Positions 27,335-45,804 are shown, numbered from the stretch's first letter. The stretch is DNA of 64,000 nucleotides from an uncultured Alphaproteobacteria bacterium (GCA_902563305.1 CACEWP010000001.1:40130-104129), one strand, 5' to 3'. Notes: generated by a model from the sequence alone, not told the origin. Numbers and translations: made by a program.

Positions 27335-28024
27335 CTAATCTTTATCAATAGAGTAGCCAGAGGACCTGATAGTCCTTATAAAGTTTTTTTTTCCTTCGAT
27401 ATTTAATGATTTTCTAAGCCTCCTTATGTGAGTGTCAACAGTTCTTCGTTCAACATAAATCCCGTGTCCCCAAACAGAATCTAGAAGTTGTTCTCTTGAA
27501 AATACTCTGCAAGGGTTTTCCATAAGATGCTTTAAAAGATTATATTCCGTGGGTCCAAGATGAACTCTCGTTTTTCCTCTGAATACTTTATGTTCATTAT
27601 CCAAAATTTTAATGTCTTCAAACTCTAATATGTTGTTTTGAGTAGAAGTTGATCTTCTAATAAGGGCTTTTATTCTTGCAATAAGTTCTGCAGGGCTAAA
27701 AGGTTTTGATATGTAATCATCCGCCCCATATTCCAAACCCCTTATTCTGTCTTCCTCTTCCTCTCTGGCAGTCAACATTATAATCGGTAAATTACTGGTT
27801 TCTTGTTTTCTTCGCAGAATTTTACAAAGCTCTAATCCATTTGGTTCAGGAATCATCCAATCAAATATAGCCAATGATGGAATTTCTTCTTTAATCAACA
27901 ATAGTGCTTCTTCACCGTTAGTGGCTGATTTTACCTGAAATCCGTTTTTTTCAATATTGTAGGTAATCATTGGTAGTAATGATTTATCATCCTCCACCAC
28001 AAGAATTGTTTTTTTAGTTTCCAT
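27335..28024 (-). CDS. phoB: Phosphate regulon response regulator PhoB
   Basis: VEDD, FDWMIP, MLTAR, GADDYISKPFS, LGPTEY and RTVDTHIRRLRK motifs; follows phoU. Confidence 0.96.
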   Translation of the reverse strand: METKKTILVVEDDKSLLPMITYNIEKNGFQVKSATNGEEALLLIKEEIPSLAIFDWMIPEPNGLELCKILRRKQETSNLPIIMLTAREEEEDRIRGLEYGADDYISKPFSPAELIARIKALIRRSTSTQNNILEFEDIKILDNEHKVFRGKTRVHLGPTEYNLLKHLMENPCRVFSREQLLDSVWGHGIYVERRTVDTHIRRLRKSLNIEGKKNFIRTIRSSGYSIDKD

Positions 28025-28678
28025 TTATTTAAGAGTACCTTGAAGATTATAAATAACTTCTTTTGATATTACTTTTGATAGATCTCCAATTCTTTCTAAT
28101 TCTTTAGCGATAAATAACATTTGTGTACAAAACCCAATAATATCTCTATCTTCCATCATCAAATGTAAATGCTCTCTAAAACAAGTTTCATACACAGAGT
28201 TAATTGTGATATCTTCGGTAGGAACAGATCGTGCAATTTCTTTTGACTCTTGATCATAAGCACTTAGGGCTGTGGAAAAATTTTTTAAAACTAAAAGGCC
28301 AAGTTGGTGAATTGAATCAGTGCTATAGCTATCAGGAGATTTTTTTACTGATAATATCCTTCCAGCCACGTTGGATGCATGATCACCGATGCGTTCTAGT
28401 ATACTTGATATTTTCAGAGAAATAATAATCTGCCTAAGATCATCTGCAAGAGGTTGTCTTTTTGACAACGTAATGGTCGCAAATCCTCTTATTTTTTTTT
28501 CTAAAGCATCAATGCCTTTATCATTTTCTATAACTTCATTAGCTTTTGAAATATTGATTATTTTTATCAAGTCAACTGCTTGGAAGATTTGTTTTTCAAC
28601 ATTCAAACCCATTTTTGTTAAGTTGCTTTTTAGAGAATTTAAATCTTCATCATATGTTGTTACAATATGTTCTTTCAT
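28025..28678 (-). CDS. phoU: Phosphate signalling protein PhoU
   Basis: QPLADDLR and two LERIGD repeats. Confidence 0.95.
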   Translation of the reverse strand: MKEHIVTTYDEDLNSLKSNLTKMGLNVEKQIFQAVDLIKIINISKANEVIENDKGIDALEKKIRGFATITLSKRQPLADDLRQIIISLKISSILERIGDHASNVAGRILSVKKSPDSYSTDSIHQLGLLVLKNFSTALSAYDQESKEIARSVPTEDITINSVYETCFREHLHLMMEDRDIIGFCTQMLFIAKELERIGDLSKVISKEVIYNLQGTLK

Positions 28679-28681
28679 TTT

Positions 28682-29458
28682 TTAACCTATTTTTCCTGTT
28701 ATATAATCTTGAGTTTTTTTTTGGCTTGGTGTTGAAAAAATTTGATCTGTGCGCCCTACCTCGATTAAATTACCCATATGAAAAAAAGCAGTTTGCTGTG
28801 AAACTCTTGCAGCTTGCTGCATAGAGTGAGTAACTATTACAATAGTAAAGTTTTTAACTAACTCATCAATAAGTTCTTCAATTACAGCAGTTGCTATTGG
28901 ATCTAGTGCTGAGCAAGGTTCATCCATTAGAATGATTTGTGGACTAATTGCAATGGCTCTGGCTATGCATAGTCTTTGTTGTTGTCCCCCCGATAAAGAG
29001 GTTCCTGAATCATTTAGCCTATCTTTTACCTCTTCAAACAAACCAGCTTTTTTTAAGCTATATATAACTAGCTCCTCTAATTCATCATCGCTATTAACAA
29101 TTCCATGAATTTTTGGTCCGTAGGCAACATTATCAAAAATTGACTTAGGGAATGGATTAGGTTTTTGGAACACCATTCCTATCTTTGCCCTAAGTAAAAC
29201 CGGGTCGACTTCTGTGGAATATATATCTTCTTCATCAACAATAATTTTTCCTTCTATCCTACAAATATCAATCGTATCATTCATACGATTTATACATCTA
29301 AGAAAAGTAGATTTTCCACAACCACTTGGACCTATTAAGGCTGTGACCTTATTTGTAGGAATTTCAAGATTGATTTTATCAAGTGCTTTCTTCTGGCCAT
29401 AGTAAACATTAACATTTTTACTTTTTATTTTAATTTTTTCTGTCATAAAACCTCTCAT
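28682..29458 (-). CDS. pstB: Phosphate ABC transporter ATPase
   Basis: [25 protein letters not shown] and DEPCSALDP motifs; the start may be ATG 29446. Confidence 0.97.
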
Positions 29459-29464
29459 AATATT

Positions 29465-30739
29465 TTACCATTTTTTTTCAAACTTTTGTCTAATATATAC
29501 TGCCAATCCGTTCATCAAAATAAGAAAAGAAAGTAAAACCATTACCCCTGCCGCAGTAAGCTCAACAAAACCTCTAGCAGCAGTACTTTTCCAAAGATAA
29601 ATTTGAACTGGAAGAACAGTAGAGGAATCTAAAAATGACCCTGGAACATCAACAATAAACGCAACCATTCCTATCATTAATAATGGTGCGGACTCTCCAA
29701 GTGCTTGAGACATTCCAATGATGGTTCCTGTCAGAATACCTGGCAAAGAAAGTGGAAGTACATGATGAGTAACTGTCTGAAACTTCGTTGCACCTAAACC
29801 AATTGCAGCTTCTCTAATTGACGGTGGTACAGCCTTTAATGAAGCTCTGGTGGCAATAATAATTGTTGGAAGAGTCATAAGAGCTAAAACCATTCCGCCA
29901 ACGATGGGGGCAGATCTCGGTAAATGCATGACATTGAGAAAAATTGCTAAACCTAATAATCCAAATATTATAGAGGGTACGGCTGCTAAGTTATTAATAT
30001 TAACCTCAATAAAATCTGTAAATTTATTTTTTGGTGCAAGCTCCTCAAGAAAGACTCCTGCGGCAACGGCAATTGGAAATGATAGAATTAATGTTACAAA
30101 TAATGTAAAGAATGAGCCTACAAGCGAGCCCCAGATTCCTGCTTGTTCCGGTTCTGTTGAATCTGCCTTTACAAAAAAGTTTTTATTAAAATTACTTTCA
30201 ATATTATTTGCTGATCTTATTTCATTCAGCCAATTCAATTCGAGGTTAGAAATCAATCTATCTTCTTCTGCTATCAACTCCATGTCTGGATTTTTATTTA
30301 TAACATCAATTTTTGAGGAGGCTAATAACCATAAGGTGACTTTCTGGCCTATTAGTTGTTTGTTTTCTAGAACAAGTCTCATAAGGTTTTCTTCCTCTGA
30401 ACTAGAGATAAAGTTACTTAATTTGCGTAATTCGCCCTTGTCAGAAATTTCTGGAAAAAAACTATTTAAAGAGTTTTTGATTATTTTTTGAAAATTTGCG
30501 AATTTTATATCTTCTTCTTTTTGGTCATTGTCTGTGTAAATTATATCAGGATCAAAATATACTTCTAATTTTATATAAGTACTTAAAAAAGCTTTTTTCC
30601 CCTCCATAAAAATTGAACTAAGAATAATACATAAAAATGTGACTGCAGATGTTATACCTAGCAAACCATAAATCTTGAATCGTGATTCTTGTCTTTTTCT
30701 TTTTTTTAGAGAATATTCTATTTTTTTTAGGTTATTCAT
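29465..30739 (-). CDS. pstA: Phosphate ABC transporter permease PstA
   Basis: NLAAVPSIIFG, EAA loop and GESAPL motifs. Confidence 0.95.
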   Translation of the reverse strand: MNNLKKIEYSLKKRKRQESRFKIYGLLGITSAVTFLCIILSSIFMEGKKAFLSTYIKLEVYFDPDIIYTDNDQKEEDIKFANFQKIIKNSLNSFFPEISDKGELRKLSNFISSSEEENLMRLVLENKQLIGQKVTLWLLASSKIDVINKNPDMELIAEEDRLISNLELNWLNEIRSANNIESNFNKNFFVKADSTEPEQAGIWGSLVGSFFTLFVTLILSFPIAVAAGVFLEELAPKNKFTDFIEVNINNLAAVPSIIFGLLGLAIFLNVMHLPRSAPIVGGMVLALMTLPTIIIATRASLKAVPPSIREAAIGLGATKFQTVTHHVLPLSLPGILTGTIIGMSQALGESAPLLMIGMVAFIVDVPGSFLDSSTVLPVQIYLWKSTAARGFVELTAAGVMVLLSFLILMNGLAVYIRQKFEKKW

Positions 30740-32117
30740 ATCTTTCCCTGTATTTACTTACAATTTTGAGTGCCAATAAATTTAAAAAAAGGGTTGCAAC
30801 AAAAAGTGTGATTCCTAGGGCAAAAGCAGCAAGTGTTTTTGCACTATCAAACTCTTGGTCGCCAATTAAGAGTGTAACTATTTGTACTGTGACAGTTGTT
30901 ACAGCTTCAAAAGGATTAGCTGTTAAGTTTGCTGCAATTCCTGCAGCCATAACAACTATCATAGTTTCGCCTATAGCACGAGAAACTGCGAGAAGAATTG
31001 CTCCAATTATACCAGGCAAAGCAGCTGGAAGTATTATTTTTTTAACTGTTTCTGATTTTGTTGCTCCCATAGCATAAGATGCATCACGTAAGGACTTTGG
31101 CACGGCACTGATAACATCATCTGATAAAGATGAAATAAAAGGAATAATCATTATTCCCATAACACCACCAGCGGCTATTGCACTTTCAGAGGCAATATTA
31201 AATCCACTATAGTTTGCTAAATCTTTAAAAAAAGGACCAACTGTAATAGCTGCAAAAAATCCATACACTACAGTAGGTACGCCTGCTAGTATTTCTAAGA
31301 TTGGTTTAAAGGTTTGTCGAACTTTGGGAGTTGCATATTCTGATAAATATACAGCAGAAAGCAAACCAACTGGAATTGCCACAGACATTGCTATCAGGGT
31401 GATCAAAAGTGTTCCTGAAAAAATCGGGATTGCTCCAAAAACACCTTGACTTGCAATTTGTCCTTCTCTAATTGCTGTTTGAGGGCTCCAAGATAGACCA
31501 AATAAGAAATCAAAAAAAGGTATTTCATCAAAAAATCTTAAAGCTTCAAAAATCAGAGAAAAAATAATTCCTATAGTTGTAATTATTGCGATTGTCGAAG
31601 AGAATATTAATAGATTTATATTTGATTTTTCTACTGCCTGTCTTGCCTTAAATGTGGTTGAAATCTTTTTTAATGAAAAATAGCTAGAGAGAAAAGCAAC
31701 AATTAAAATAGAAAAATATGCAAAAGAGTTTGAGTAATTATTTAGGTCTTTAAAATATGTCGCGCTTTCCACTATCAAAGGATTTGTTCCTGGGAAAATT
31801 CTCTCGAGATCGACTGCTTTTATGCTATCAACTAGCATTGAGGGGGCTCCATCGAAGTTTGCTGATAATTGCTCCGGGATGTTTTGTAATAAAATGTATT
31901 CCAGAATAAAGGGCTTACCAACTAACCAGAGCAGAAGCAATGATGATGTTGGGAAAATAATTAATAGGAGTGAATATGTTCCGTAGTAAGATGGCAGAGA
32001 GGGAAGTTTTGATCCTTTTTCTAATTTAGCATTAAGTTTTAAGGCTTTGTTGGTTGCATACCAGTGAACTGATAGCCCCAACACTACTAAAATAAAGAAA
32101 AAGGACCAAAAACCCAT
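30732..32117 (-). CDS. pstC: Phosphate ABC transporter permease PstC
   Basis: ILAGVPTVVYG and SRAIGETM motifs. Confidence 0.95.
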   Translation of the reverse strand: MGFWSFFFILVVLGLSVHWYATNKALKLNAKLEKGSKLPSLPSYYGTYSLLLIIFPTSSLLLLWLVGKPFILEYILLQNIPEQLSANFDGAPSMLVDSIKAVDLERIFPGTNPLIVESATYFKDLNNYSNSFAYFSILIVAFLSSYFSLKKISTTFKARQAVEKSNINLLIFSSTIAIITTIGIIFSLIFEALRFFDEIPFFDFLFGLSWSPQTAIREGQIASQGVFGAIPIFSGTLLITLIAMSVAIPVGLLSAVYLSEYATPKVRQTFKPILEILAGVPTVVYGFFAAITVGPFFKDLANYSGFNIASESAIAAGGVMGIMIIPFISSLSDDVISAVPKSLRDASYAMGATKSETVKKIILPAALPGIIGAILLAVSRAIGETMIVVMAAGIAANLTANPFEAVTTVTVQIVTLLIGDQEFDSAKTLAAFALGITLFVATLFLNLLALKIVSKYRERYE

Positions 32118-32143
32118 AACGTAACATTAAAGAATTCCTTCTT

Positions 32144-33190
32144 CTACTTCAAGACCTTAGCATCAAATTTAGCAAGAGTTTTACCATCTTTTTCAAATTG
32201 AGCTCTCTCGCTTTCACCAAGTGGAATAAGGCCCTTTGATACTAAATAACCGTCAGAACCAATTGCTTTTGAAGAGGTAAATTCTCTTACATATTCTTTT
32301 ATTCCTGGAATAACCGATGCATGAGCATTTTTTATGTAGAAAAACAATGATCTTGAGACTGGATATTTACCAGATGAGATAGCCTCAAACTCTGGAAAAA
32401 CACCATCAACTTTTGCCGCTTTGACCTTATCTCGATTTTGATCAAGAAAAGAATAACCAAAGACTCCCAATGCGCCAGGGTCAGCAACCAACTTTTCGAT
32501 AATTAAGTTGTCGTTTTCTCCAGCTTCAACATAGGGACCATCTTCTCTGACACTTCGGCATTGACTTTTATAAAGTTTTTTGTCTTTTTTCTTCAGTGCT
32601 TTTCTTCCAGGAAATTTTTTGCAACCTCTTTCAATAGCTAATTCATTGAAAGCATCACGTGTCCCAGAAGTCGGAGGTGGCCCAATTACAACAATAGGCG
32701 CAGCTGGTAATGCTGGGTTTACTTCGTTCCACATTTTGTAAGGGTTAGGTTTTACAGTATTTCCTTCGGGATCCGCAGGAACGTCTTTAGCCAGAGCAAG
32801 ATAAATATCCTTTAATGATAATTCCAGCATAGGACCAGATTTAGCGTTAGCCATGGCAATTCCATCAAAGCCGACTTTTATTTCGGTAATATCAGTTACG
32901 CCATTTTCTGAGCATTTTTTTACTTCCTTGGATTTTATTCTTCTAGAAGCATTAGTAATGTCTGGATGTTCGGTTCCTAGGCCTTTGCAGAAAAGCTTAA
33001 GACCTCCACCTGAACCTGTAGATTCAATTACAGGAGTTTTAAAACCGCTTGTTTTCCCGAATCTTTCTGCCACTACCGTAGCAAAAGGATAAACTGTGGA
33101 AGAACCAACAATTTTTATTTGGTCGCGTGCTATTGATTCAGTGCTAAAAGCAAATGCCAAAGCAACAATAGCAAGTGAAGATTTTTTCAT
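32144..33190 (-). CDS. pstS: Phosphate ABC transporter substrate-binding protein
   Basis: Signal peptide; VGSSTVYPF, STGSGGG and SGTRDAF motifs. Confidence 0.95.
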   Translation of the reverse strand: MKKSSLAIVALAFAFSTESIARDQIKIVGSSTVYPFATVVAERFGKTSGFKTPVIESTGSGGGLKLFCKGLGTEHPDITNASRRIKSKEVKKCSENGVTDITEIKVGFDGIAMANAKSGPMLELSLKDIYLALAKDVPADPEGNTVKPNPYKMWNEVNPALPAAPIVVIGPPPTSGTRDAFNELAIERGCKKFPGRKALKKKDKKLYKSQCRSVREDGPYVEAGENDNLIIEKLVADPGALGVFGYSFLDQNRDKVKAAKVDGVFPEFEAISSGKYPVSRSLFFYIKNAHASVIPGIKEYVREFTSSKAIGSDGYLVSKGLIPLGESERAQFEKDGKTLAKFDAKVLK

Positions 33191-33251: not shown

Positions 33252-33280
33252 ATGACATTTATGTTACATTTTTATGACAA
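33252..33280 (-). promoter_or_regulatory. Pho box (three PhoB half-sites) upstream of pstS
   Basis: Minus strand TTGTCAT-AAAA-ATGTAAC-ATAA-ATGTCAT; 11-bp period matching CTGTCAT-N4-CTGT(A/C)A(C/T). Confidence 0.9.
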
Positions 33281-33312: not shown

Positions 33313-33828
33313 TCACAAATCTTTAGGTTTTGTATAAAAATTTATTTTTGATACTGATTTATTAATCTCAAACCATTCTTTACACTTGAAGCTTACATTA
33401 AAAAAAGCAGAAGTTGTATATTCTTCAATAGCATTTAGATAATATTTATTGTTGCTTCCACTAAAAAAATTCTCAATTGAACTGGAAATTAAGGGTTCAT
33501 GTGATACTACCAAAACTCTGTTTAGTTTTGCGTGTAACATAACCGTATCAAATATATTTATTCCTGATGAATGATATAAGTCCTCTAAATAATAGATCTT
33601 CGGATCATTGGAAACTTTTTCTAATAATAGCTTTAATGTTTCTTTGGTTCTCCTCGATGGAGAACAAAAAATTTCTTTAAACACTATTTTTTTTTCTTTT
33701 TTCTCTAAAAATTTTAGTATTTTTTCGGTTTTTTTTTTACCCTTCATCGAAATAGGTCTTGACATATCGTCTCCATCGAAATTACTCCAATCTGACTTAG
33801 CATGCCTAATTAACGATAAATTTAGCAT
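33313..33828 (-). CDS. sixA: Histidine phosphatase, SixA family
   Basis: RHAKSDW, RP.S..G, SPSRRT and VSHEP motifs. Confidence 0.85.
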   Translation of the reverse strand: MLNLSLIRHAKSDWSNFDGDDMSRPISMKGKKKTEKILKFLEKKEKKIVFKEIFCSPSRRTKETLKLLLEKVSNDPKIYYLEDLYHSSGINIFDTVMLHAKLNRVLVVSHEPLISSSIENFFSGSNNKYYLNAIEEYTTSAFFNVSFKCKEWFEINKSVSKINFYTKPKDL

Positions 33829-33970: not shown

Positions 33971-35425
33971 TTAATTACTTTTTAATGATTCAAAGGCATC
34001 TGAAATATTTTTCATGCCCCTTTCAAACGATTGTCCGAAAAGCAGATAGGTTTTTTTTGCTTTAAAATTAACCTTATTTATGGAATTAATTGTTAATTTA
34101 CAATGATCCAAATTATTATAGTTAAGTCTGCCTGTGATATGATGCGCCATTCTTAAAAGTTGTCCCAATATTTTAACTTTAATGAGATTTTTTTTTGAAA
34201 TCTTTTCTGAATAAGACAAAGCAAAATTTTCCTTAAGATTGTTTGAATATCTAAAGTAAAGAATTAAAGCAAGCATAATTCTATTTTGCCTATCTAGGTG
34301 AAAAAATTGATGGTATAAGATTTTTTCAAGAGCAAAAATTCTTCTATGCTCTGGATGCAAAGCCGACGCTATGTTTGTAAGCCAGCATGCTGAAAGTAAA
34401 AGATTTTGATCCATTTTCAAAATATCATTAAACGGTAAAATCCAACTGAATAATTTCTCGGCATTTCTTTTCTTAATTGTTCCGCGAGCTATTTTTCTAA
34501 TTTGGCTTAAAAACGGATCCACGCCTTTGTCTTTAACTAGATCATATAGAACACCTTCTCTAACTCCAGTGTTAGTAAAAAAGATTTTTTTTATCGACAA
34601 CTTTTGAACTAACATTTCTAAAACATTAAAGGTGTATGGGATCGATTTTTTTCTTGATTTGAATAACTGGCTTAAAAACTTTTCATCAACTGTATTTTTA
34701 TTTACAAAAATTCTTGTTCTTAATTCATTCAAAAATTCAGCTGAATCAACTTTATAATCTTGAATTATTTTTAAATCTTCACTTTTTATATGCATATGCA
34801 ATTTTGCTAATGCTCTAAAGGACCCTCCAACTGCATAAAAATTTGAGTATTTATTTAATTTTACTTTTTGTATGGAATCTTTAATATATTTAAATACCTT
34901 TTTGTCATCAAAATTGCCAATTTTTTTAAGGACTACATGTCCTATAATTAAAGATTCAATAAATTTTATTTGTTTCGAAGTATTAACTTCAGTTAATTCA
35001 AGACTACCGCCGCCAAAATCGCCAACAATTCCATCGACTTCGTGGTGTGAAAAAAAAACACCTTTTGCTGATAACTCTCCCTCTTCTTCTTCCGTTAAAA
35101 CTCTTATATCATGGTCGAACTCAGATCTTAGTTTTTTTACAATAAGATTTTGATTTTCTGCAAGTCGCAAAGCAGCTGATCCAAAAATATGAAGATTTTT
35201 TTTTTTAACATTTTTACATAAATAAAAAAATCTTTTTAATACCTTCATTAAATTTTGGAGTTCTGATTCATCTATTCTTTTCATGAATATTCCTTTTCCC
35301 AAATTTAAAGTAACTTTTTCATTAAAGATGACACTAGCTGAAAACTTTTGCTCATCAAAAATGACAAGCCTAACTGAAGATGAGCCAATATCAATTATGG
35401 CAATTGGATTATTTTTATTACTCAT
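33971..35425 (-). CDS. ppx: Exopolyphosphatase Ppx/GppA
   Basis: IDIGSSSVRL, AALR.A.N, DFGGGSLE and GVREG motifs; ATGA overlap with the ppk stop. Confidence 0.92.
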   Translation of the reverse strand: MSNKNNPIAIIDIGSSSVRLVIFDEQKFSASVIFNEKVTLNLGKGIFMKRIDESELQNLMKVLKRFFYLCKNVKKKNLHIFGSAALRLAENQNLIVKKLRSEFDHDIRVLTEEEEGELSAKGVFFSHHEVDGIVGDFGGGSLELTEVNTSKQIKFIESLIIGHVVLKKIGNFDDKKVFKYIKDSIQKVKLNKYSNFYAVGGSFRALAKLHMHIKSEDLKIIQDYKVDSAEFLNELRTRIFVNKNTVDEKFLSQLFKSRKKSIPYTFNVLEMLVQKLSIKKIFFTNTGVREGVLYDLVKDKGVDPFLSQIRKIARGTIKKRNAEKLFSWILPFNDILKMDQNLLLSACWLTNIASALHPEHRRIFALEKILYHQFFHLDRQNRIMLALILYFRYSNNLKENFALSYSEKISKKNLIKVKILGQLLRMAHHITGRLNYNNLDHCKLTINSINKVNFKAKKTYLLFGQSFERGMKNISDAFESLKSN

Positions 35426-37515
35426 TTTTTTTTAAATTTTGATCCTCTGCCAGATAAAGATGGATTGTCTATAAAATACTTATGTGCAGAAAAACCAACT
35501 GATTTTGAAGCAATGCGTTCGTAAGACCCGTTAGATTTTAATTTCCAACTATTTTTTTTATCTTTTAAGTATGCAACCATTATTTGATTCAGAATTTGTT
35601 TTTGAACAGTTTCGTTGGCTATGGGAATAAAAGCTTCTACCCTTCTATCAAGATTTCTTGTCATAAGGTCAGCTGAAGAAATAAAAACGAAATTTTTTTC
35701 ATTTGGCATTTTATTCCCGTTGGCAAAACAAAAAATTCTGCTGTGCTCCAAAAACCTTCCTATAATACTTTTTACCTCAATATTCTCAGAAAAACCAGGA
35801 ATTCCTGGCCTTAGTCCGCATATACCTCTTACTATTAGTTTTATTTTAACTCCATTCTGTGAAGCAAAATATAATTGATCAATGATATTACTATCAATTA
35901 ATGAATTAACTTTGATCCATATTTGAGCAGGTAGATTCTTTTTTTTATTTGTAATTTCATTGTTGATAAGAGAGGTCAATTTTTCCCTTAGAAATTTTGG
36001 TGAATATGTCAACACATTCATTTTTTCTGGCTTTGTATAACCAGTTATAAAATTAAAAACTTTTAAAGCGTCATTTGCCAAATCTTTATTACATGAAAAA
36101 AAAGATAAATCAGTATAAGTTTTTGCAGTTATAGGGTGATAATTTCCAGTTCCAAAATGAACATACGACACAAGCTCATCACTTTCCTTTCTTGTTACAA
36201 CAGAAATCTTAGCGTGAGTTTTGAGATTTACAAATCCATATACGATGTGCACACCAGCTTTTTCTAAATCACGCGCCCATTTGATATTTTTCTCTTCATC
36301 AAAACGAGCTTTCAATTCCACTATTGCTGTTACTGACTTGCCATTATTAGAAGCATCAATTAAAGCTTTAATTATTGGCGAGTTTTTGCTCGTTCTATAA
36401 AGTGTTTGTTTAATCGATACAACAAAATCATCTATTGCTGCTTGTTCCAAAAAGTTTACAACAACATCAAAACTCTCAAAGGGATGGTGAACGATAATAT
36501 CCTTTTTCTTAATTGCTGAAAAACAACTCCCATTATAATCTATGATTCTTTGCGGAAATCTTGGCTTTATTTTTTTAAATTTAAGATCTTGATCGGCGTG
36601 CTCGACAATCTCATTTAGTGAATTAATATCCAAAAGTGAATTTACTCGAAAAATTCTTTCCTCACTAACTTTGAGCGATTTTTTAATAAAAGAAAGTAAT
36701 TTTTTTTCTACTCTTCCTTGAATATATAAACCAATAACTGTTCCTCTCCTTCTTTTTTTTAGAGCAGTTTCGAATGAGAGAATTAAATCCTCAGCCTCTT
36801 CTTCAAATTCAATATCACTGTCTCTGATAACTCTAATTAATGAAAAACTTTTTAGCTTAAAATCTGGAAAGATAATTTTGATGTTATTTTTTATAATATC
36901 CTCGGATTTAGCAAAATTATTGGGATTTGAAACTTTGAAAAATCTTTGGAGTTTTGGTGGAAAAATAACTAGAGAATAGGATAGCTTCCCTTTTTTATTT
37001 ATTAAAGCACACACCATTGTAATGCTTTGATTTGGAAGAAATGGAAATGGATGGGCACCATCAATTGCTAATGGTGTTAAAGAGGGCAGAATTGATTTTT
37101 TGAATACTTCAACTGTTTTTTTTTCTTCTTTTTTGAAATCTTTTGGTATTTCCAAAACTTTTATTTTTTTTTTACTTAATTCTTTTTTAAGGCTATTCCA
37201 AATATTTTGTTGTTTTTTTAAAAGTGACCTCAAAGATTTTGTAACGTCATTAAACTGTTGCCTAGTTGTTCTTCCGTCATCAGTTCTCATGGAAACTTTC
37301 TGTTTCATCAGTCGGTAAAGTCCTGCAACTCTTACCATATGAAATTCATCTAAATTATTTCCTGAAATTGATAGAAATCTTAGTCTCTCTATTAACAGAT
37401 TCCGAAGGTTTTCTGATTCGCTCAAAACTCTATCATTGAAACTCAACCAAGATAACTCTCTATTGATGAAACGCATCGGAGAATTTTGAATGTTTTTATT
37501 AAATTTTTTGTTCAT
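35422..37515 (-). CDS. ppk1: Polyphosphate kinase 1
   Basis: NRELSWL, NLDEF, HHPFESF, ELKARFDE, KTHAK, GTGNYH, FLEHSR and SADLMTRNLDRRVE motifs. Confidence 0.98.
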   Translation of the reverse strand: MNKKFNKNIQNSPMRFINRELSWLSFNDRVLSESENLRNLLIERLRFLSISGNNLDEFHMVRVAGLYRLMKQKVSMRTDDGRTTRQQFNDVTKSLRSLLKKQQNIWNSLKKELSKKKIKVLEIPKDFKKEEKKTVEVFKKSILPSLTPLAIDGAHPFPFLPNQSITMVCALINKKGKLSYSLVIFPPKLQRFFKVSNPNNFAKSEDIIKNNIKIIFPDFKLKSFSLIRVIRDSDIEFEEEAEDLILSFETALKKRRRGTVIGLYIQGRVEKKLLSFIKKSLKVSEERIFRVNSLLDINSLNEIVEHADQDLKFKKIKPRFPQRIIDYNGSCFSAIKKKDIIVHHPFESFDVVVNFLEQAAIDDFVVSIKQTLYRTSKNSPIIKALIDASNNGKSVTAIVELKARFDEEKNIKWARDLEKAGVHIVYGFVNLKTHAKISVVTRKESDELVSYVHFGTGNYHPITAKTYTDLSFFSCNKDLANDALKVFNFITGYTKPEKMNVLTYSPKFLREKLTSLINNEITNKKKNLPAQIWIKVNSLIDSNIIDQLYFASQNGVKIKLIVRGICGLRPGIPGFSENIEVKSIIGRFLEHSRIFCFANGNKMPNEKNFVFISSADLMTRNLDRRVEAFIPIANETVQKQILNQIMVAYLKDKKNSWKLKSNGSYERIASKSVGFSAHKYFIDNPSLSGRGSKFKKK

Positions 37516-38761
37516 TATAACTTTCCTGGAGGAAGGATGTTAAATACAAACAAAAAGCAATCATGATTGTTGATAATGCTAAGCTTAAAGTTAGCCCGCC
37601 AAATTGATAAGATAATCCAGATAAAAGGGTTCCGAAAAACCTTCCAGTAGCATTAGCCATATAGTAAAAGCCAACATCAAGAGAAACTCTGTTCATTTTT
37701 GAGAAATGCAAAATCAAATAAGAATGAATAGACGAATTTACAGCAAATATTCCACAAAAAATAAAAAGACCAGAAAATAAAAAAATTGTTGTCAGAAAAA
37801 TTTCACTGAAAAAAAATAGTAAAAAAGTTAATAAGATTAGATTAATTAGGAGGTAGAGAACCCAATTTTTTGAGATATCTACCAAGTTAATTTTTCTGTT
37901 GTCCTTCTTTAAGAATAATTTTGGTGAGTAAGCTTGAATTATTCCGTAGAGAATTATCCATGCGGCCATAAAGCTCCCAATTATAAAGAAGGCTTTTTTA
38001 TTCCCATCTACCGAACCATCCGAAAAAATACTGTAAAAAAAAATTGGCAATCCAACCACAAACCAAACATCACGTGCTCCAAATAAAAAAATTCTTGCTG
38101 CAGATAGAAAGTTAATGTTTTTAGATTTTGAAAATACATCGAATATTTTTGCTTTATTATTTTTATTTATAAGATCATCCTTTAAGAAAATAAAACTACA
38201 TACCAAAATAAAGGTAACAATAACAACCATTGAAATTAATGAATTATAAAAACCTATCGTTGCTAATAATGTACAGCCCAGCAAAAATCCGAAACCTTTT
38301 ACAGCATTTTTCGAACCTGTTAAGATTGCCACCCACTTAAAGAGGCTCGATTGATTATCTGGTGCTAAAAGTTTAACTGCTGATTTAGAGGACATCTTTG
38401 TTAAATCTTTTGCAATACCGCTTAATCCTTGGACGATTAAAACATAAAAAATCGAAAAGTTTTGACTCCAATTTTCATCCAATTGTGATAGAGAGTAAAG
38501 AGAAATTATTTGAACAGTCAAACCTGCATATAAAGTAAGCTTAAGACCGTATCGAGCGGCTAACCATCCAGCTGAAGGATTTGTAAAAATCCCAGCCAGT
38601 TCATAAAATAGAAATAAATATGCGAGTTGTAGTGGTGAAAAACCATTTTGATGAAAATGAAGTAAAACTAACATTCTCAGTGCCCCATCACTAAGCATAA
38701 ATACCCAATAAGCAAAGGTAACTATCAAATAAGAGAATTGTTCTTTAGACAATAAAATCAT
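37499..38761 (-). CDS. arsJ: Organoarsenical (1-arseno-3-phosphoglycerate) efflux MFS transporter ArsJ
   Basis: YW.F.LSDGALRMLV, GIAKDLTKMSSKSA, LTGSKNA.KG, FGARDVWFVVGLP and DVGFYYMANA motifs; directly after a GAPDH gene. Confidence 0.9.
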   Translation of the reverse strand: MILLSKEQFSYLIVTFAYWVFMLSDGALRMLVLLHFHQNGFSPLQLAYLFLFYELAGIFTNPSAGWLAARYGLKLTLYAGLTVQIISLYSLSQLDENWSQNFSIFYVLIVQGLSGIAKDLTKMSSKSAVKLLAPDNQSSLFKWVAILTGSKNAVKGFGFLLGCTLLATIGFYNSLISMVVIVTFILVCSFIFLKDDLINKNNKAKIFDVFSKSKNINFLSAARIFLFGARDVWFVVGLPIFFYSIFSDGSVDGNKKAFFIIGSFMAAWIILYGIIQAYSPKLFLKKDNRKINLVDISKNWVLYLLINLILLTFLLFFFSEIFLTTIFLFSGLFIFCGIFAVNSSIHSYLILHFSKMNRVSLDVGFYYMANATGRFFGTLLSGLSYQFGGLTLSLALSTIMIAFCLYLTSFLQESYNEQKI

Positions 38762-39756
38762 AGAGATTCACTTACAAATTCGCAAATATCAACCATTCTT
38801 TTTGCATAAGCGATTTCGTTGTCATACCATGCATAAACTTTCAGTTGCCTCTTGTTTATAACCATAGTAGAACACGCATCAATAATTGCTGACCTGGTAT
38901 CATTTACATAATCTGCTGATACAAGCTGAGCTTCCTCATAGCCTAAAATCCCTTTCAAATCATTCTCAGAGGCATCTTTAAAAAAGTTATTTACTTCTTC
39001 TTCAGAAGTATCTCGTTTTAATTCAAAAACACAATCCGTTAATGATGAATTTAAAAGTGGGACTCTGACAGCATGACCATTAAGTTTTCCTTCTAATTGA
39101 GGATAAATAAGAGATATTGCTTTCGCACTTCCTGTTGTTGTGGGAATCAAAGAATTTAAAGAGGACCTAGATCGTCTGATATCTTTTCCAGGTTTGTCGA
39201 CAATTGTCTGTGTGTTAGTTACGTTATGTATTGTTGTAATTGACCCATGTACTATGCCAATATTTTCGTGGAGTACTTTTACAACAGGTGCTAAACAGTT
39301 TGTTGTACAACTAGCAGCTGTAATTATTTTATGAGTATCGGGAATATATGTTTTATGGTTTATTCCAAATACTATATTTGCAACATTTTTTTCATTAATT
39401 GGTGCAGAGACAATTACTTTCTTAACACCATTATCAAAATAAGGGGCTAATTTTTTTTCTGATTTGAAGACTCCCGTGCAATCTAAAACAATATCTACAC
39501 CTTCTAGTTTTAAATTTTCAATTTTATTGTGATTATTAAAAATTAGTCTTCGATCATCAATTGAAATTATATTCTGGTCGGTAGAAAATTTGGCATTCCA
39601 CCGACCATGAACAGTGTCAAACTCCAACAAATGGCAATGTGTGTTTATAGTTCCAACTGCATCATTAATCCAAGCTAAATCTAAATTTTTTTCTAGAAGA
39701 AATTTGAGTACATATTTACCAATCCTTCCTATTCCATTAATTGCATACGTTGTCAT
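38758..39756 (-). CDS. gap: ArsJ-associated glyceraldehyde-3-phosphate dehydrogenase
   Basis: INGIGRIG, ASCTTNCLAP and WYDNE motifs; start adjusted to ATG 39756 (MTTYAING); ATGA overlap with arsJ. Confidence 0.92.
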   Translation of the reverse strand: MTTYAINGIGRIGKYVLKFLLEKNLDLAWINDAVGTINTHCHLLEFDTVHGRWNAKFSTDQNIISIDDRRLIFNNHNKIENLKLEGVDIVLDCTGVFKSEKKLAPYFDNGVKKVIVSAPINEKNVANIVFGINHKTYIPDTHKIITAASCTTNCLAPVVKVLHENIGIVHGSITTIHNVTNTQTIVDKPGKDIRRSRSSLNSLIPTTTGSAKAISLIYPQLEGKLNGHAVRVPLLNSSLTDCVFELKRDTSEEEVNNFFKDASENDLKGILGYEEAQLVSADYVNDTRSAIIDACSTMVINKRQLKVYAWYDNEIAYAKRMVDICEFVSESL

Positions 39757-39778
39757 GATGAACGAGTACTTTGGTAGT

Positions 39779-39796
39779 GTTACAGTTTTATGACAA
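39779..39796 (-). promoter_or_regulatory. Pho box upstream of gapdh-arsJ-ppk1-ppx
   Basis: Minus strand TTGTCAT-AAAA-CTGTAAC, close to consensus, 22 nt before the ATG. Confidence 0.88.
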
Positions 39797-39822: not shown

Positions 39823-39859
39823 ATGTCATCTTACGTAAAAGTGTTACGTAAGGTGACAT
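39823..39859. terminator. Long inverted repeat; probable terminator of the Lys-rich gene (or an operator)
   Basis: ATGTCATCTTACGTAA-AAGTG-TTACGTAAGGTGACAT, 16-bp arms with one mismatch, 12 nt after the stop at 39872. Followed by GTGTATTTTT on the minus strand. Confidence 0.55.
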
Positions 39860-39871
39860 ATTATATTTTAT

Positions 39872-40489
39872 TTATTTTGTTGTCTCAGGTTTTTCTTCTG
39901 ATGAAGGAGAGGTGATATCCGTTTTTATGTTTATATTTTGAGTAGAAACTTTATCTAAGCTCCCATTTGATTTTGTTAAATCAATTTTTTTTGTTTTTGA
40001 CTTATTTTTGACAGTGGACTGAGAAGTTTTTGTAGTTTTTTTATCACTTTTTTTAAGTCGAGCTTTTAACTTTTTATTGTTACTTTTTAATTTTTTAATA
40101 ACTTTTTTAGGTTTATTAAGTTTAGATTCTAATTTCTTATTATCCTTTTTTAATTTACTAACGTTTTTATTAGGTTTCTTAAGTTTGGATTCTAACTTTT
40201 TATTAACCCTTTTTAATTTACTAACCTTTTTTTTAGGTTTTTTGAATTTAATTATTTTAGCTTTTAAATTTTTATTTTTCTTTTTTAAAACCTGAATTTC
40301 TTTTTTTTGATCAGATTTTTTTTTCGCACCTTCAATTGCTAAACACCCTAATTTTACAATTTTTGGTAGCTTTTTAGATTTACTCATTTTTTTAAGACTT
40401 AAACCTGTTAAGCGAGAAAATTTCTTATTAGAAATCTTATTTTTTTTCCCCCATCTTTTAAGCTGAGTTGGTTTTTTAAGTGGTTGCAT
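39872..40489 (-). CDS. Lysine-rich (histone-H1-like) protein with degenerate HTH-paralogue N-terminus and 21-aa repeats
   Basis: Strong RBS AAAGGAGG before ATG 40489; 70 Lys in 205 aa by hand count; N-terminus aligns by eye with the XRE protein at 41094. Confidence 0.75.
   Translation of the reverse strand: MQPLKKPTQLKRWGKKNKISNKKFSRLTGLSLKKMSKSKKLPKIVKLGCLAIEGAKKKSDQKKEIQVLKKKNKNLKAKIIKFKKPKKKVSKLKRVNKKLESKLKKPNKNVSKLKKDNKKLESKLNKPKKVIKKLKSNNKKLKARLKKSDKKTTKTSQSTVKNKSKTKKIDLTKSNGSLDKVSTQNINIKTDITSPSSEEKPETTK
40055..40243 (-). repeat. Three tandem 63-bp (21-aa) coding repeats
   Basis: KKPKKKVSKLKRVNKKLESKL / KKPNKNVSKLKKDNKKLESKL / NKPKKVIKKLKSNNKKLKARL; the similarity is also visible in the DNA. 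Confidence 0.85.
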
Positions 40490-40549
40490 TTTAATTCCTC
40501 CTTTTAACTTTACATTTATGCATTGCAATTCCTGGGAACAGCATATACA

Positions 40550-40577: not shown

Positions 40578-40886
40578 TTATTTAAAGCTTTTGTTGTTTG
40601 TTGTATTTTCTGTTAATTTTTGTTTAAGGGACTCTAAATCCTGATCTAACTTATAGTGTGACCAATCACTAAAAGACAAACAAACGGAATATTTCTTTTT
40701 TAAAATATTGTTATTTTCTTTTATGTTTGAAGCGCTTTTAAGTTGGCCGTTAATTATCTCAGACATAAACCTACAAGAATTCTGAGTATTATATGTTTCT
40801 GTGGTAGTTTTACTTACGTCTGTTACAAAGCCGTCAGAATCATAAAGAGGGCCAAAAAACGTTACAAAAACAATAACCCAAGTCAT
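40578..40886 (-). CDS. Hypothetical protein with short hydrophobic N-terminus and two Cys
   Basis: 102-aa ORF; its ATG overlaps the TGA of the upstream small ORF (ATGA). Confidence 0.6.
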   Translation of the reverse strand: MTWVIVFVTFFGPLYDSDGFVTDVSKTTTETYNTQNSCRFMSEIINGQLKSASNIKENNNILKKKYSVCLSFSDWSHYKLDQDLESLKQKLTENTTNNKSFK

Positions 40887-41863: not shown

Positions 41864-41953
41864 AGTGTATATGCACATAAGATAGATTTCTAATGGATTT
41901 TAGGCGTTCTTTTAAATTAACCTGCAATTTCACATAAATAGTGCATATACACT
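41864..41953. repeat. 90-bp intergenic element bounded by perfect 13-bp inverted repeats
   Basis: AGTGTATATGCAC (41864-41876) and GTGCATATACACT (41941-41953), between two convergent stop codons. Confidence 0.7.
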
Positions 41954-43346
41954 AAAAAAATCTCTTCAATATGGATACATAAGTAACAAACACAAAAACA
42001 AGTGAGCAAAGAACAGCTGCACTGCCTAAATCTTTGGCTCTTTTTGAAAGGTCGTGATGTGAAAAAGAAATTCTGTCAATGGTGGCTTCAATGCTTGAAT
42101 TAAGTAATTCAATTATGAGTAAAAGCATAATACTTCCAATCATGAGAAGTTTTTCTGTAGTCTCGGTTGGAAATATAAAAGCAAGAGGGATTAATATCAA
42201 AGTGAGAAGTAGTTCTTGTCTGAAAGCACTCTCCTCCTTAAAAGCAAATATAAATCCTGAGAGACTATTTATTAAAGCAAAATATAATCTCCTCAACCCA
42301 GTATTCTTTTTATGTGGATTCTCTTTAAAGACATATGTTTTTGGATCCCTTTTTTTTGAATTTTGTAGATTAGATTCAAAGATATTGACAACATTCTCCC
42401 AGGTGAATTTTTTTACATAATGTAAAGGTTTGTTGGCCGGTATTTTTAATGCATTTAAACACGCTATTTTAAGATTTTTATTTAGAACCCCTGCTCCACT
42501 TTTTCCAATAACATTGATTGGGCCTGCAACTGGAAATGCGGCTACTGGTAATCCGCATGCCATAGCTTCTAGTAATACTAGCCCGAAAGTATCGGTTTTG
42601 CTTGGAAAAACGAATAAATCTGCTTTTCCATAGTATTCATGTAATTCATGTTGTTTTTTTTCACCAAAAAATTTGACATTTGGATATTTTTTTTCGAGTT
42701 TGCGTCTATCAGGACCATCACCTACAATCCATTTTTCACAGTCGAGATCTAATTTTAAAAACGCTTCTAAGTTTTTTTCAATAGCAACTCTTCCTATGTT
42801 TATCAAAATAGGTTTGCCATTTTTCTTTTTTTGCAAAGGGGGTTTGAAAAGCTTAAAATCAACACCTCGTGGCCATATTGTAGTATTATGTATATTCCAC
42901 TTTTTTAAATCTTCTATTACTGATTTTGTAGGAACAAGTATTTTATGTGCTTTACTATGAAACCATTTTAGATAACCATAACCTATAAAAAGAGGAACTT
43001 TAGTTCTCTTATATATATATTCCGCAAATTTTGTATGAAATGAAGTTGTATAAACAAGTCCATTTTTTACCACATAATTTCTTCCTGCTAAACCTAGTGG
43101 ACCCTCAGTTGCAATATGAATCGCATCTGGATTGAATTCTTTAATTAACTTTTTAACTTTGTTCCCTGGAAAAAAAGATAACCGGATTTCAGGGTAAGTA
43201 GGACAAGGAAATGTTTTAAACAGATCAGGTGTTATCATTAAAACATTATGACCTTTTTTTTCTAAAAGTTCTTTTGTTTTAGATAACGTATGGACCACTC
43301 CATTAACTTGAGGGTGCCAGGCATCTGAGATAATTACTATTTTCAT
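41952..43346 (-). CDS. GT4 glycolipid glycosyltransferase (Agt-like) fused to diacylglycerol kinase DgkA
   Basis: N-terminal SDAWHPQVNGVV, HIATEGPLG and FPSKTDTFGLVLLEAMACG (GT4/Agt). C-terminal ESAFRQE, ELLNSSIEATIDR and AKDLGSAAV (DgkA). Start adjusted to ATG 43346. Confidence 0.9.
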   Translation of the reverse strand: MKIVIISDAWHPQVNGVVHTLSKTKELLEKKGHNVLMITPDLFKTFPCPTYPEIRLSFFPGNKVKKLIKEFNPDAIHIATEGPLGLAGRNYVVKNGLVYTTSFHTKFAEYIYKRTKVPLFIGYGYLKWFHSKAHKILVPTKSVIEDLKKWNIHNTTIWPRGVDFKLFKPPLQKKKNGKPILINIGRVAIEKNLEAFLKLDLDCEKWIVGDGPDRRKLEKKYPNVKFFGEKKQHELHEYYGKADLFVFPSKTDTFGLVLLEAMACGLPVAAFPVAGPINVIGKSGAGVLNKNLKIACLNALKIPANKPLHYVKKFTWENVVNIFESNLQNSKKRDPKTYVFKENPHKKNTGLRRLYFALINSLSGFIFAFKEESAFRQELLLTLILIPLAFIFPTETTEKLLMIGSIMLLLIIELLNSSIEATIDRISFSHHDLSKRAKDLGSAAVLCSLVFVFVTYVSILKRFF

Positions 43347-43356
43347 AACTAGGAAA

Positions 43357-44157
43357 TTAAGTTTTTTGTGGGAGCTGAAAGTGACTTGAATGCTCTTGAG
43401 AAATTCTAGATGACCAGTCAACAATCTCTAGATTACCATCGATATGTTCTACAATTGCGGTCATAGACTCTACCCAATCACCGCTATTACAATATATTAT
43501 ATCATGAATTGATTTGAATTCTGCTTTGTGTATATGCCCACAAACAACACCATCAAACCCTCTTCTTTTTGCCTCCTTAGTCATTACTAATTCATAGGCA
43601 GTAATAAATGAAACAGCTTTTTTTACCTTTTGTTTAATAAACTTTGATAATGACCAGTAAGGTAGCTTTAAAAATTGTCTAATATTATTAAATAGATTGT
43701 TTAAGCGGATTAACATAGCATAACACTTGTCACCAACATATGCGAGCCAACGAGCATGTCTAATAACGCTATCAAATTGATCTCCATGAATGATCCATAA
43801 TTTCTTACCCTTGAGAGTGGTATGGTGAGCTTCCTTTTCAATTATTATATCTCCGAAATTCACACCAATATATTTACGCGCAGCTTCATCATGGTTACCT
43901 GGTATAAATACAACTTTTACTCCTTTCCTAGCTTTTCTTAGTAATTTTTGGATAACATCATTGTGAGCTTGTGGCCAATACCATTTTTTCTTCAATCGCC
44001 ATCCATCGATAATGTCTCCTACAAGAAAAATTTTTTCGGACTTTGAAACTTTAAGAAACTCTAAAAGAAGTTCTGCTTTGCAACCGCTTGTACCTAGATG
44101 AACATCTGAAATCCATATTGTTCTGTAACGATTATGTTTAAAGGATACGCCATCCAT
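43357..44157 (-). CDS. plcP: Phospholipase C PlcP (LpxH-like metallophosphoesterase) for lipid remodelling
   Basis: SDVHLG, GDIIDGW, GNHD, HGDQFD, CGHIH and NSGDWVES motifs; next to an Agt-like gene and under a Pho box. Confidence 0.85.
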   Translation of the reverse strand: MDGVSFKHNRYRTIWISDVHLGTSGCKAELLLEFLKVSKSEKIFLVGDIIDGWRLKKKWYWPQAHNDVIQKLLRKARKGVKVVFIPGNHDEAARKYIGVNFGDIIIEKEAHHTTLKGKKLWIIHGDQFDSVIRHARWLAYVGDKCYAMLIRLNNLFNNIRQFLKLPYWSLSKFIKQKVKKAVSFITAYELVMTKEAKRRGFDGVVCGHIHKAEFKSIHDIIYCNSGDWVESMTAIVEHIDGNLEIVDWSSRISQEHSSHFQLPQKT

Positions 44158-45786: not shown

Positions 45787-45804
45787 GTTACAACTTTATG
45801 ACAA
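45787..45804 (-). promoter_or_regulatory. Pho box upstream of the porin
   Basis: Minus strand TTGTCAT-AAAG-TTGTAAC, followed 10 nt later by the -10-like TAGCTT. Confidence 0.88.

Follow-up and report, generated by a model that had tools for sequence, protein, structure and literature searches.

The pairing of a glyceraldehyde-3-phosphate dehydrogenase (GAPDH) with the permease ArsJ is known as an arsenate-efflux system of ars operons, described in Pseudomonas aeruginosa DK2 (Chen, Yoshinaga, Garbinski, Rosen 2016, as described in PMC5930303). In Halomonas sp. GFAJ-1, which lives in an arsenic-rich lake, an arsenic island places pstBACS beside mfs1-mfs2(arsJ)-gapdh and arsH1-acr3-2-arsH2, and arsenate resistance without arsenate reduction has been demonstrated genetically (PMC5930303). 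The pair also occurs in phosphate-stress clusters of cyanobacteria: Nodularia carries arsR-sphX-gap-arsJ, where both proteins belong to the P-limitation stimulon with a modest rise under P limitation, by log2 1.6–2.4 for the ArsJ-associated GAPDH and 0.3–1.2 for ArsJ (PMC9846622), and the P-acquisition island of Prochlorococcus includes arsR, gap1, mfs, chrA, phoBR and pstS (PMC10504305). Here we analyse a 64,000-nucleotide (nt) stretch of DNA from an uncultured Alphaproteobacteria bacterium, the whole of which we call the window, in which a gapdh-arsJ pair is preceded by a Pho box and followed by ppk1 and ppx, two genes of polyphosphate metabolism. The window belongs to an assembly of 1,343,338 bp representing a genome that is 77.9% complete.

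The locus shares features with each of these systems and departs from all of them. As in P. aeruginosa DK2, a dedicated GAPDH paralogue is encoded immediately upstream of a major facilitator superfamily (MFS) permease, and both products pass curated NCBIfam cut-offs; unlike that pair, the operon lacks a neighbouring ArsR, ArsC or arsenite pump, a Pho box stands in front of it instead, and ppk1-ppx follow. As in GFAJ-1, a pst operon is physically linked to gapdh and arsJ; the GFAJ-1 island, however, has typical ars genes and, as far as the available part of its description goes, no mention of Pho-box control, whereas the window holds an oligotroph's phosphate-starvation island without ars genes. 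Like the cyanobacterial clusters, the locus places a gapdh and MFS/ArsJ pair among phosphate-acquisition genes (in Prochlorococcus, gap1 and mfs would be the candidate pair), but those clusters carry an ArsR gene, lack ppk1-ppx and belong to a different phylum. Martiny and co-workers reportedly found, in 2006, that gap1 and mfs are induced in P-starved MED4. The second half of the operon also has counterparts: in Gammaproteobacteria (Klebsiella, Acinetobacter, Escherichia coli), ppk and ppx are adjacent, overlapping and Pho-regulated as part of the phosphate-starvation response. Unlike those operons, the ppk1-ppx genes of the window lie behind gapdh-arsJ without a separate promoter region.

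Gene calls and family matches for the operon are collected in the table below. An earlier note on this DNA had described ATGA overlaps at gapdh/arsJ and ppk1/ppx together with a 17-bp overlap of arsJ and ppk1, and the table of open reading frames (ORFs) and the junction sequences bear this out (4, 4 and 17 nt, respectively). A GGAAAG Shine-Dalgarno sequence inside arsJ supports the ppk1 start at 37515, which is also backed by an N-terminal alignment, in which a relative lacks a Met at the next candidate start. Terminator-like matches inside the operon are at chance level (3 found versus 2.3 expected). The genome contains arsJ in single copy; by homology, its product would export 1-arseno-3-phosphoglycerate and so give arsenate resistance. 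A second, housekeeping GAPDH is encoded on contig 2, is 40% identical to the window gapdh product, and scores 327 on NF033735 and 388 on TIGR01534. Because this second copy fails the ArsJ-associated model, we take the window GAPDH to be a dedicated paralogue; its SCTTNC motif and a downstream His align with the housekeeping enzyme, so that the catalytic Cys and His are kept. The ppx product reaches 213 bits on TIGR03706, under the cut-off of 307, and is therefore assigned no further than to the Ppx/GppA family.

A near-consensus Pho box had been noted 22 nt before gapdh, and we confirmed it on the minus strand as TTGTCATAAAACTGTAAC. It consists of two 7-bp direct repeats in 11-bp phase. Its form, TTGTCATAAANNTGTAAC (16 fixed bases), occurs exactly three times on the two strands of the whole assembly, against 0.0047 copies expected from base composition. 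Counted to the start codons, the three copies precede pstS (72 nt), an OprP-type porin gene (43 nt) and gapdh (22 nt), all on the same strand and all inside 12.5 kb; at up to three mismatches, the window holds 3 matches, versus 0.12 expected from shuffles. With three copies in the assembly where 0.005 would be expected, the box before gapdh is no chance match, and since the other two precede pstS and the OprO/OprP porin gene, two of the three front textbook Pho-regulon genes. Relaxed matches (2–3 mismatches) number 46 in the assembly, and the six that we inspected were intragenic or without a downstream ORF, except for one on contig 14. That site (TTGTCATAAAATTTTAAT, C14 12001–12018, 2 mismatches) lies directly against the start of an ORF of 600 residues whose sequence reads as a putative RelA/SpoT-type (p)ppGpp enzyme.

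In E. coli, the Pho box takes the place of the -35 element and lies ~10 bp upstream of the -10 hexamer. A similar geometry can be proposed here, with TACTCG as a putative weak -10 hexamer, and the TA at this offset is kept in relatives (TACTGG, TACAGG, TATGAG, TAGAGA). Because the room between box and ATG is filled by a 10-nt spacer, TACTCG and a further 6 nt, the gapdh transcript would be leaderless, starting at or next to the ATG. On the upstream side, a strong terminator hairpin, both arms of which have changed in concert in L009 and L010, separates a lysine-rich ORF from the gapdh promoter.

A scan with one genome per species returned 18 loci with a close ArsJ. Five loci (L005, L007–L010) are 96.5–98% identical to the window at the DNA level and keep the whole arrangement with a box of 0–1 mismatch, while L006, a short contig with gapdh-arsJ only, has the box with 1 mismatch. 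Two loci from a second genus (g2) of the same family, L060 and L061, retain Pho box-gapdh-arsJ-ppk1-ppx at 72% identity in ArsJ and 52% in Ppx, with a box of 1 mismatch 23 nt before the ATG and with 56 nt between arsJ and ppk1. A third lineage, L011 (86% identical in ArsJ, 77% in GAPDH), has a box with 2 mismatches, gapdh-arsJ, a second, tandem box and then pstSCAB-phoU-phoB; ppk1 is absent there, and a divergent ppx (38% identical) is located elsewhere. The distance of 22–23 nt from box to ATG is thus kept in three diverged lineages, although the flanking intergenic sequence differs. A genus-mate whose genome is 93% complete (G198) has phoR-oprP-fae-pstSCAB-phoUB, with no match to the part of the window from orf102 to the SixA-like gene, nor to the two putative lipid-remodelling genes. 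Given these arrangements, including its absence from G198, the operon is an accessory cassette in a phosphate island of flexible content.

The earlier note had also reported that no arsR, arsC or acr3 lies in the window; this holds, and it extends to the assembly, in which the HTH_5, LMWPc and Acr3 models have no match (ArsB was not searched for). A single ArsC/Spx-family ORF, on another contig, reaches 61 bits on TIGR00014, under the cut-off of 106. By tblastn, no ars-type gene was found in any of 18 loci of the window lineage and SAR116, nor near arsJ in either of L060 and L061. Five family genomes, all more complete than that of the window, contain no Acr3 above cut-off and only marginal HTH_5 matches (20–24 bits versus a cut-off of 22), and the one such match on an arsJ contig is 123 kb away from arsJ. 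The locus is therefore not a classical ArsR-controlled ars operon, having no ArsR/SmtB gene in or beside it and no LMWPc or Acr3 in the assembly.

How unusual this is can be judged from an even sample of 401 alphaproteobacterial genomes, 33 of which (including that of the window) encode ArsJ; we compared the 32 other loci, 30 of them outside the family. In all 32, gapdh precedes arsJ. Ars neighbours were counted within 3 kb by tblastn with 15 ars queries drawn from the loci themselves, and an ars-type gene was present in 22 of the 30 loci outside the family, mostly ArsR or an ArsR-ArsC fusion directly upstream, in agreement with the premise that ArsJ normally keeps the company of ars regulators. 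An earlier tally of 13 of 30, made from greedy longest-ORF calls and Pfam matches at E ≤ 1e-8, was dropped because small arsR genes of high-GC loci had escaped it, covered by spurious antisense ORFs. Pst or pho neighbours are found in four of the 30 (L040, L041, L049, L062). Two of these, L040 and L041, read pstSCAB-arsR-gapdh-arsJ and resemble the GFAJ-1 type; both come from Alphaproteobacteria with large genomes, and in each the small gene lying after pstB and before gapdh (L040 7542–7913, L041 11310–11675) encodes an ArsR-family protein with a CC...C motif at the C-terminus. An antisense ORF had masked this gene in the longest-ORF gene call. L049 reads pstS-arsC-gapdh-arsJ, and L062 reads pstCAB-phoB-gapdh-arsJ followed by an alkaline phosphatase gene, with no ars gene nearby. 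In single-cell genomes of SAR116, gapdh-arsJ is divergent from phoR-pstSCAB-phoU(-phoB) in five of the six loci with enough flank, again with no ars-type gene nearby and no ppk1/ppx at gapdh-arsJ. A generic Pho-box pattern has no match before gapdh in L040, L041, L049, L062 or the SAR116 loci. The window thus resembles SAR116 and L062 in having a pst/pho-linked gapdh-arsJ away from ars-type genes, and differs from them in having ppk1-ppx and, directly before gapdh, a box that at up to three mismatches they lack. Linkage of pst and arsJ as such is found in SAR116, three other alphaproteobacterial families, Halomonas GFAJ-1 and cyanobacteria; what is new here is a regulatory variant, Pho-box control, of the known GAPDH-ArsJ system. 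Neither a Pho box before gapdh-arsJ nor an arsJ-ppk operon was found described in the full-text passages on ArsJ consulted, drawn from a body of literature without most subscription journals.

Expression in the field could be followed in a close relative. The supplement of PMC12542740 gives transcripts per million (TPM) for 35 surface-seawater metatranscriptomes mapped to AG-892-F10, the record behind L009 and a 96.5%-identical relative; it annotates ArsJ, ppk and ppx, while the main text contains neither 'arsen' nor 'polyphosphate'. We calculated Spearman correlations over the 35 samples for 26 of its roughly 1,400 rows. The sum of arsJ, ppk and ppx correlates with pstS (rho 0.75) and oprP (0.70) and not with the lysine-rich gene upstream of the operon (0.01), and arsJ alone behaves in the same way (0.52, 0.63 and -0.15). 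For comparison, the bona fide pst-operon genes pstA, pstB, phoU and phoB correlate with pstS at rho 0.41–0.58, and seven rows without an expected Pho link at -0.27 to 0.26. In addition, contigs of four seawater RNA libraries, in which DNA carry-over is possible, contain pieces of each of the four genes and span the gapdh/arsJ junction (X3, X4). The proposal that gapdh-arsJ is wired into the Pho regulon, and not to an arsenic sensor, is thus supported: its box has the same form as the pstS and porin boxes and is conserved in three diverged lineages, no ArsR-family gene was found nearby or in the assembly, and arsJ, ppk and ppx covary with pstS and oprP in seawater.

With these sequence features, their conservation, the lack of an arsenic regulator nearby and the covariation with pstS, gapdh-arsJ-ppk1-ppx is probably a PhoB-activated operon in the phosphate island of a streamlined marine alphaproteobacterium. 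Under phosphate scarcity, PhoR would phosphorylate PhoB, as in the established Pho model, and phosphorylated PhoB would bind the single Pho box that stands in for a -35 element. Transcription would then begin at or next to the gapdh ATG from a weak promoter and give a leaderless mRNA, and one transcript would serve for translation of the four overlapping genes. The dedicated GAPDH would join glyceraldehyde-3-phosphate with arsenate that enters through the induced high-affinity Pst system, and ArsJ would export the unstable 1-arseno-3-phosphoglycerate, for a net arsenate efflux without reduction, as homology to the P. aeruginosa and Halomonas systems suggests. Ppk1 and Ppx would be ordinary polyphosphate enzymes of the Pho regulon that share the promoter.

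Several observations weigh against this account. Firstly, at 77.9% completeness, absence of ars genes from the genome is not proven. Secondly, the SAR116 loci lie beside phoR-pstS and have no box before gapdh within three mismatches. Thirdly, the correlations of ppk and of ppx with pstS are weak when each gene is considered by itself (rho 0.46 and 0.33), and all the correlations rest on 26 rows of an autocorrelated time series with low counts, in which strain composition could make the genes of an island covary. Fourthly, the operon is expressed at about 50 TPM (means of 53 for arsJ, 46 for ppk and 65 for ppx) where pstS reaches 21,364 and oprP 2,159, so that a PhoB-driven promoter would have to be very weak. 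Fifthly, the gap row as annotated (mean 480 TPM) tracks the lysine-rich gene (rho 0.73; mean 12,095 TPM) and not pstS (0.31), and RNA-library contigs run from the lysine-rich gene across the intergenic region into gapdh (X1, X4); given this row and these crossing contigs, read-through or spill-over of a 3' untranslated region contributes at the 5' end of the operon.

This last observation invites the view that read-through from the lysine-rich gene, whose transcription is very strong and constitutive, accounts for most of the operon's expression, with the Pho box vestigial or a minor modulator, and an operon TPM more than 200 times below that of the upstream gene is indeed a level that a leaky terminator could deliver. 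The annotated gap coding sequence, however, starts 102 nt upstream of the true ATG and only 13 nt after the lysine-rich gene, and so includes that gene's 3' end, with which both of its correlations are consistent; arsJ, ppk and ppx themselves show no such dependence (rho -0.15, 0.30 and -0.09 with the lysine-rich gene) and follow pstS and oprP instead. The -21.5 kcal/mol hairpin, both arms of which change in relatives, separates the genes, and the box is kept across lineages whose intergenic sequence is otherwise different. We regard expression mainly by read-through as unlikely.

An operon of a single transcript could also be questioned from within. If the 3' end of arsJ contained a promoter for ppk1-ppx, there would be two units, a Pho-box gapdh-arsJ and a ppk1-ppx that is merely adjacent. 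The best sigma-70-like match of the region, TTAACA-18-TATAAT (11/12; 37514–37543), is in fact located just before ppk1, which speaks against our account; the second genus has its 56 nt rather than an overlap between arsJ and ppk1, and the in situ correlation of arsJ with ppk or ppx individually is weak (rho 0.16 and 0.10). None of the listed contigs spans the arsJ/ppk1 junction, and the bin 37513–37739 is empty in all four RNA libraries, but contigs of this kind cannot show absence and so say nothing about co-transcription. Against two units, the -10 hexamer of the match overlaps the ppk1 ATG, so that a start at this site would cost Ppk1 its conserved N-terminus, the next Met not being conserved. 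Promoter-like matches are, moreover, at chance level in this 30%-GC DNA (28 found versus 33 expected), the mean TPM of arsJ, ppk and ppx are about equal, and the two genes overlap by 17 nt with a Shine-Dalgarno sequence inside arsJ. We consider a separate ppk1-ppx unit improbable and a single PhoB-activated operon the probable reading.

The earlier note went further and proposed a functional fusion with polyphosphate metabolism that keeps arsenate out of the ATP and polyphosphate pool and acts as a proofreading step for Pst. In its mechanistic form, polyphosphate turnover and GAPDH-ArsJ together would sort phosphate from co-imported arsenate and guard this pool, and the common promoter, the overlapping reading frames and the persistence of the arrangement in two genera (at the identities given above) are what such a coupling would lead one to expect. 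The survey speaks otherwise. While both other sampled family members (L060, L061) have the ppk1-ppx linkage, none of the 30 arsJ loci outside the family has ppk1 or ppx within 3 kb; SAR116 lacks both genes at gapdh-arsJ, L011 has gapdh-arsJ directly before pstS without ppk1 and with its ppx elsewhere, and the genus-mate lacks the whole cassette. Nor was any such proposal found in the full-text literature on ArsJ with polyphosphate kinase or phosphate starvation. Of the two traits that the note would look for in arsJ neighbourhoods, then, the Pho box was recovered (in L005–L011 and L060/L061), and a wider ppk linkage was not; the claim of a functional fusion is not supported, and we consider mechanistic coupling very unlikely. 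Because the linkage is restricted to one family, absent from L011 and missing with the cassette from G198, it looks like a packing of two Pho-regulon modules, and the co-location of ppk1-ppx with gapdh-arsJ is most likely a matter of how a flexible island packs its operons, not of biochemical coupling.

The setting gives such an operon a plausible use. In the phosphate-depleted surface ocean, arsenate can exceed phosphate many-fold, and for SAR11 only ArsC and an aquaporin have been reported (PMC6426599). Because arsenate can exceed phosphate there, high-affinity Pst uptake would import the poison along with the nutrient. Marine arsenic research has so far centred on reduction, arsenite efflux and methylation; if our account is true, abundant methylotrophs and SAR116 would possess an arsenate pump that is triggered by starvation and works without reduction, an additional route of detoxification that yields no arsenite, and this would bear on the reading of arsenite/arsenate profiles as proxies of phosphate stress. 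The locus would also be a clear example of a resistance module that has come to answer to a nutrient sensor in place of an arsenic sensor, through an element that is short and well defined. Its value is tempered by the partial precedents in cyanobacteria and Halomonas and by the low expression in situ. A broader version, in which ArsR-independent, PhoB-driven arsenate export is a general, overlooked defence in oligotrophic ocean bacteria (TMED127, SAR116 and possibly picocyanobacteria) and returns arsenate rather than arsenite to seawater, and in which TMED127 couples it to polyphosphate cycling, with phosphate trapped as polyphosphate and leftover arsenate passed to GAPDH-ArsJ behind Pst, seems to us quite improbable.

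Table. Features of the operon, its promoter region and the surrounding phosphate island (positions in the window; family scores in bits)
Feature	Position	Strand	Match or remark
gapdh, ArsJ-associated glyceraldehyde-3-phosphate dehydrogenase	38758-39756	minus	NF033735 521, cut-off 450
arsJ, MFS efflux permease for 1-arseno-3-phosphoglycerate (function by homology)	37499-38761	minus	NF033734 500.1, cut-off 400; Pfam MFS_1
ppk1, polyphosphate kinase 1	35422-37515	minus	TIGR03705 844, cut-off 466; four PPK domains
ppx, Ppx/GppA-family exopolyphosphatase	33971-35425	minus	Pfam Ppx-GppA 126 (cut-off 27) and Ppx_C
Pho box TTGTCATAAAACTGTAAC	39779-39796	minus	22 nt before gapdh ATG at 39756
Putative weak -10 hexamer TACTCG	39763-39768	minus	10 nt past box, 6 nt ahead of ATG
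Hairpin terminator after lysine-rich gene	39823-39859	minus	-21.5 kcal/mol, z -7.35; terminator-like match
phoR, phosphate-regulon sensor kinase	45899-47158	minus	best family TIGR02966, 278, E 1e-82, under cut-off 334
Pho box TTGTCATAAAGTTGTAAC	45787-45804	minus	43 nt before porin gene
OprO/OprP-type phosphate-selective porin, 483 residues	44292-45743	minus	Pfam PF07396 (Porin_O_P) 115, E 6e-33
Metallophosphoesterase	43357-44157	minus	Pfam Metallophos; weak LpxH-family match
GT4 glycosyltransferase fused to diacylglycerol-kinase domain	41952-43424	minus	Pfam Glycos_transf_1, Glyco_transf_4, DAGK_prokar
SixA-like histidine phosphatase	33313-33828	minus	Pfam His_Phos_1; TIGR00249 51, under cut-off
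pstS Pho boxes, three 11-bp-phased half-sites TTGTCAT-aaaa-ATGTAAC-ataa-ATGTCAT	33252-33280	minus	
pstS-pstC-pstA-pstB-phoU-phoB	27335-33190	minus	PstB, PhoU, PhoB above cut-offs

The operon sits in a roughly 20-kb phosphate island, flanked by phoR on one side and pstSCAB-phoU-phoB on the other, with phoB, phoU and phoR all within 12 kb; PhoB reaches 311 bits on TIGR02154 (cut-off 296). A homologue of the porin is labelled oprP in the PMC12542740 supplement. The metallophosphoesterase may have a PlcP-like role in lipid remodelling, and together with the fused glycosyltransferase and diacylglycerol kinase behind the Pho-box porin gene it could form a phosphate-sparing lipid-remodelling unit. 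The fusion is one 490-residue ORF in the window and two overlapping ORFs (330 and 143 residues) in L061 (4456–5854).

Between these lipid genes and gapdh lie the lysine-rich ORF (39872–40528; 218 residues, with an extreme lysine content) and orf102 (40578–40886), neither of which has a family match. Their AG-892-F10 homologues, with mean TPM of 12,095 and 18,147, are among the most-transcribed seawater genes and are described as TMED127-specific (PMC12542740).

On the other side of the operon, homology to the five close relatives ends at window position 33788, 40 nt into the SixA-like gene. In these relatives, ~5.5 kb of additional DNA follows ppx (L005 12930–17260; compare L061 14400–18860), and a complete SixA-like gene then stands shortly ahead of pstS; the additional DNA encodes a hypothetical protein, an acetyltransferase-like protein, a lysophospholipid acyltransferase, a second hypothetical protein and an alkaline phosphatase. 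At its left edge, the L005 insert carries a short copy of the 5' end of the SixA-like gene; this points to loss or gain of the insert by recombination between repeats. Directly after phoB, at 25394–27283, the window encodes a glycosyltransferase of 629 residues that combines a GT2 domain with a heptosyltransferase-like one. In seawater, transcripts of its homologue rise and fall with those of pstS (rho 0.59), so that read-through from the pst-phoUB operon may reach this gene.

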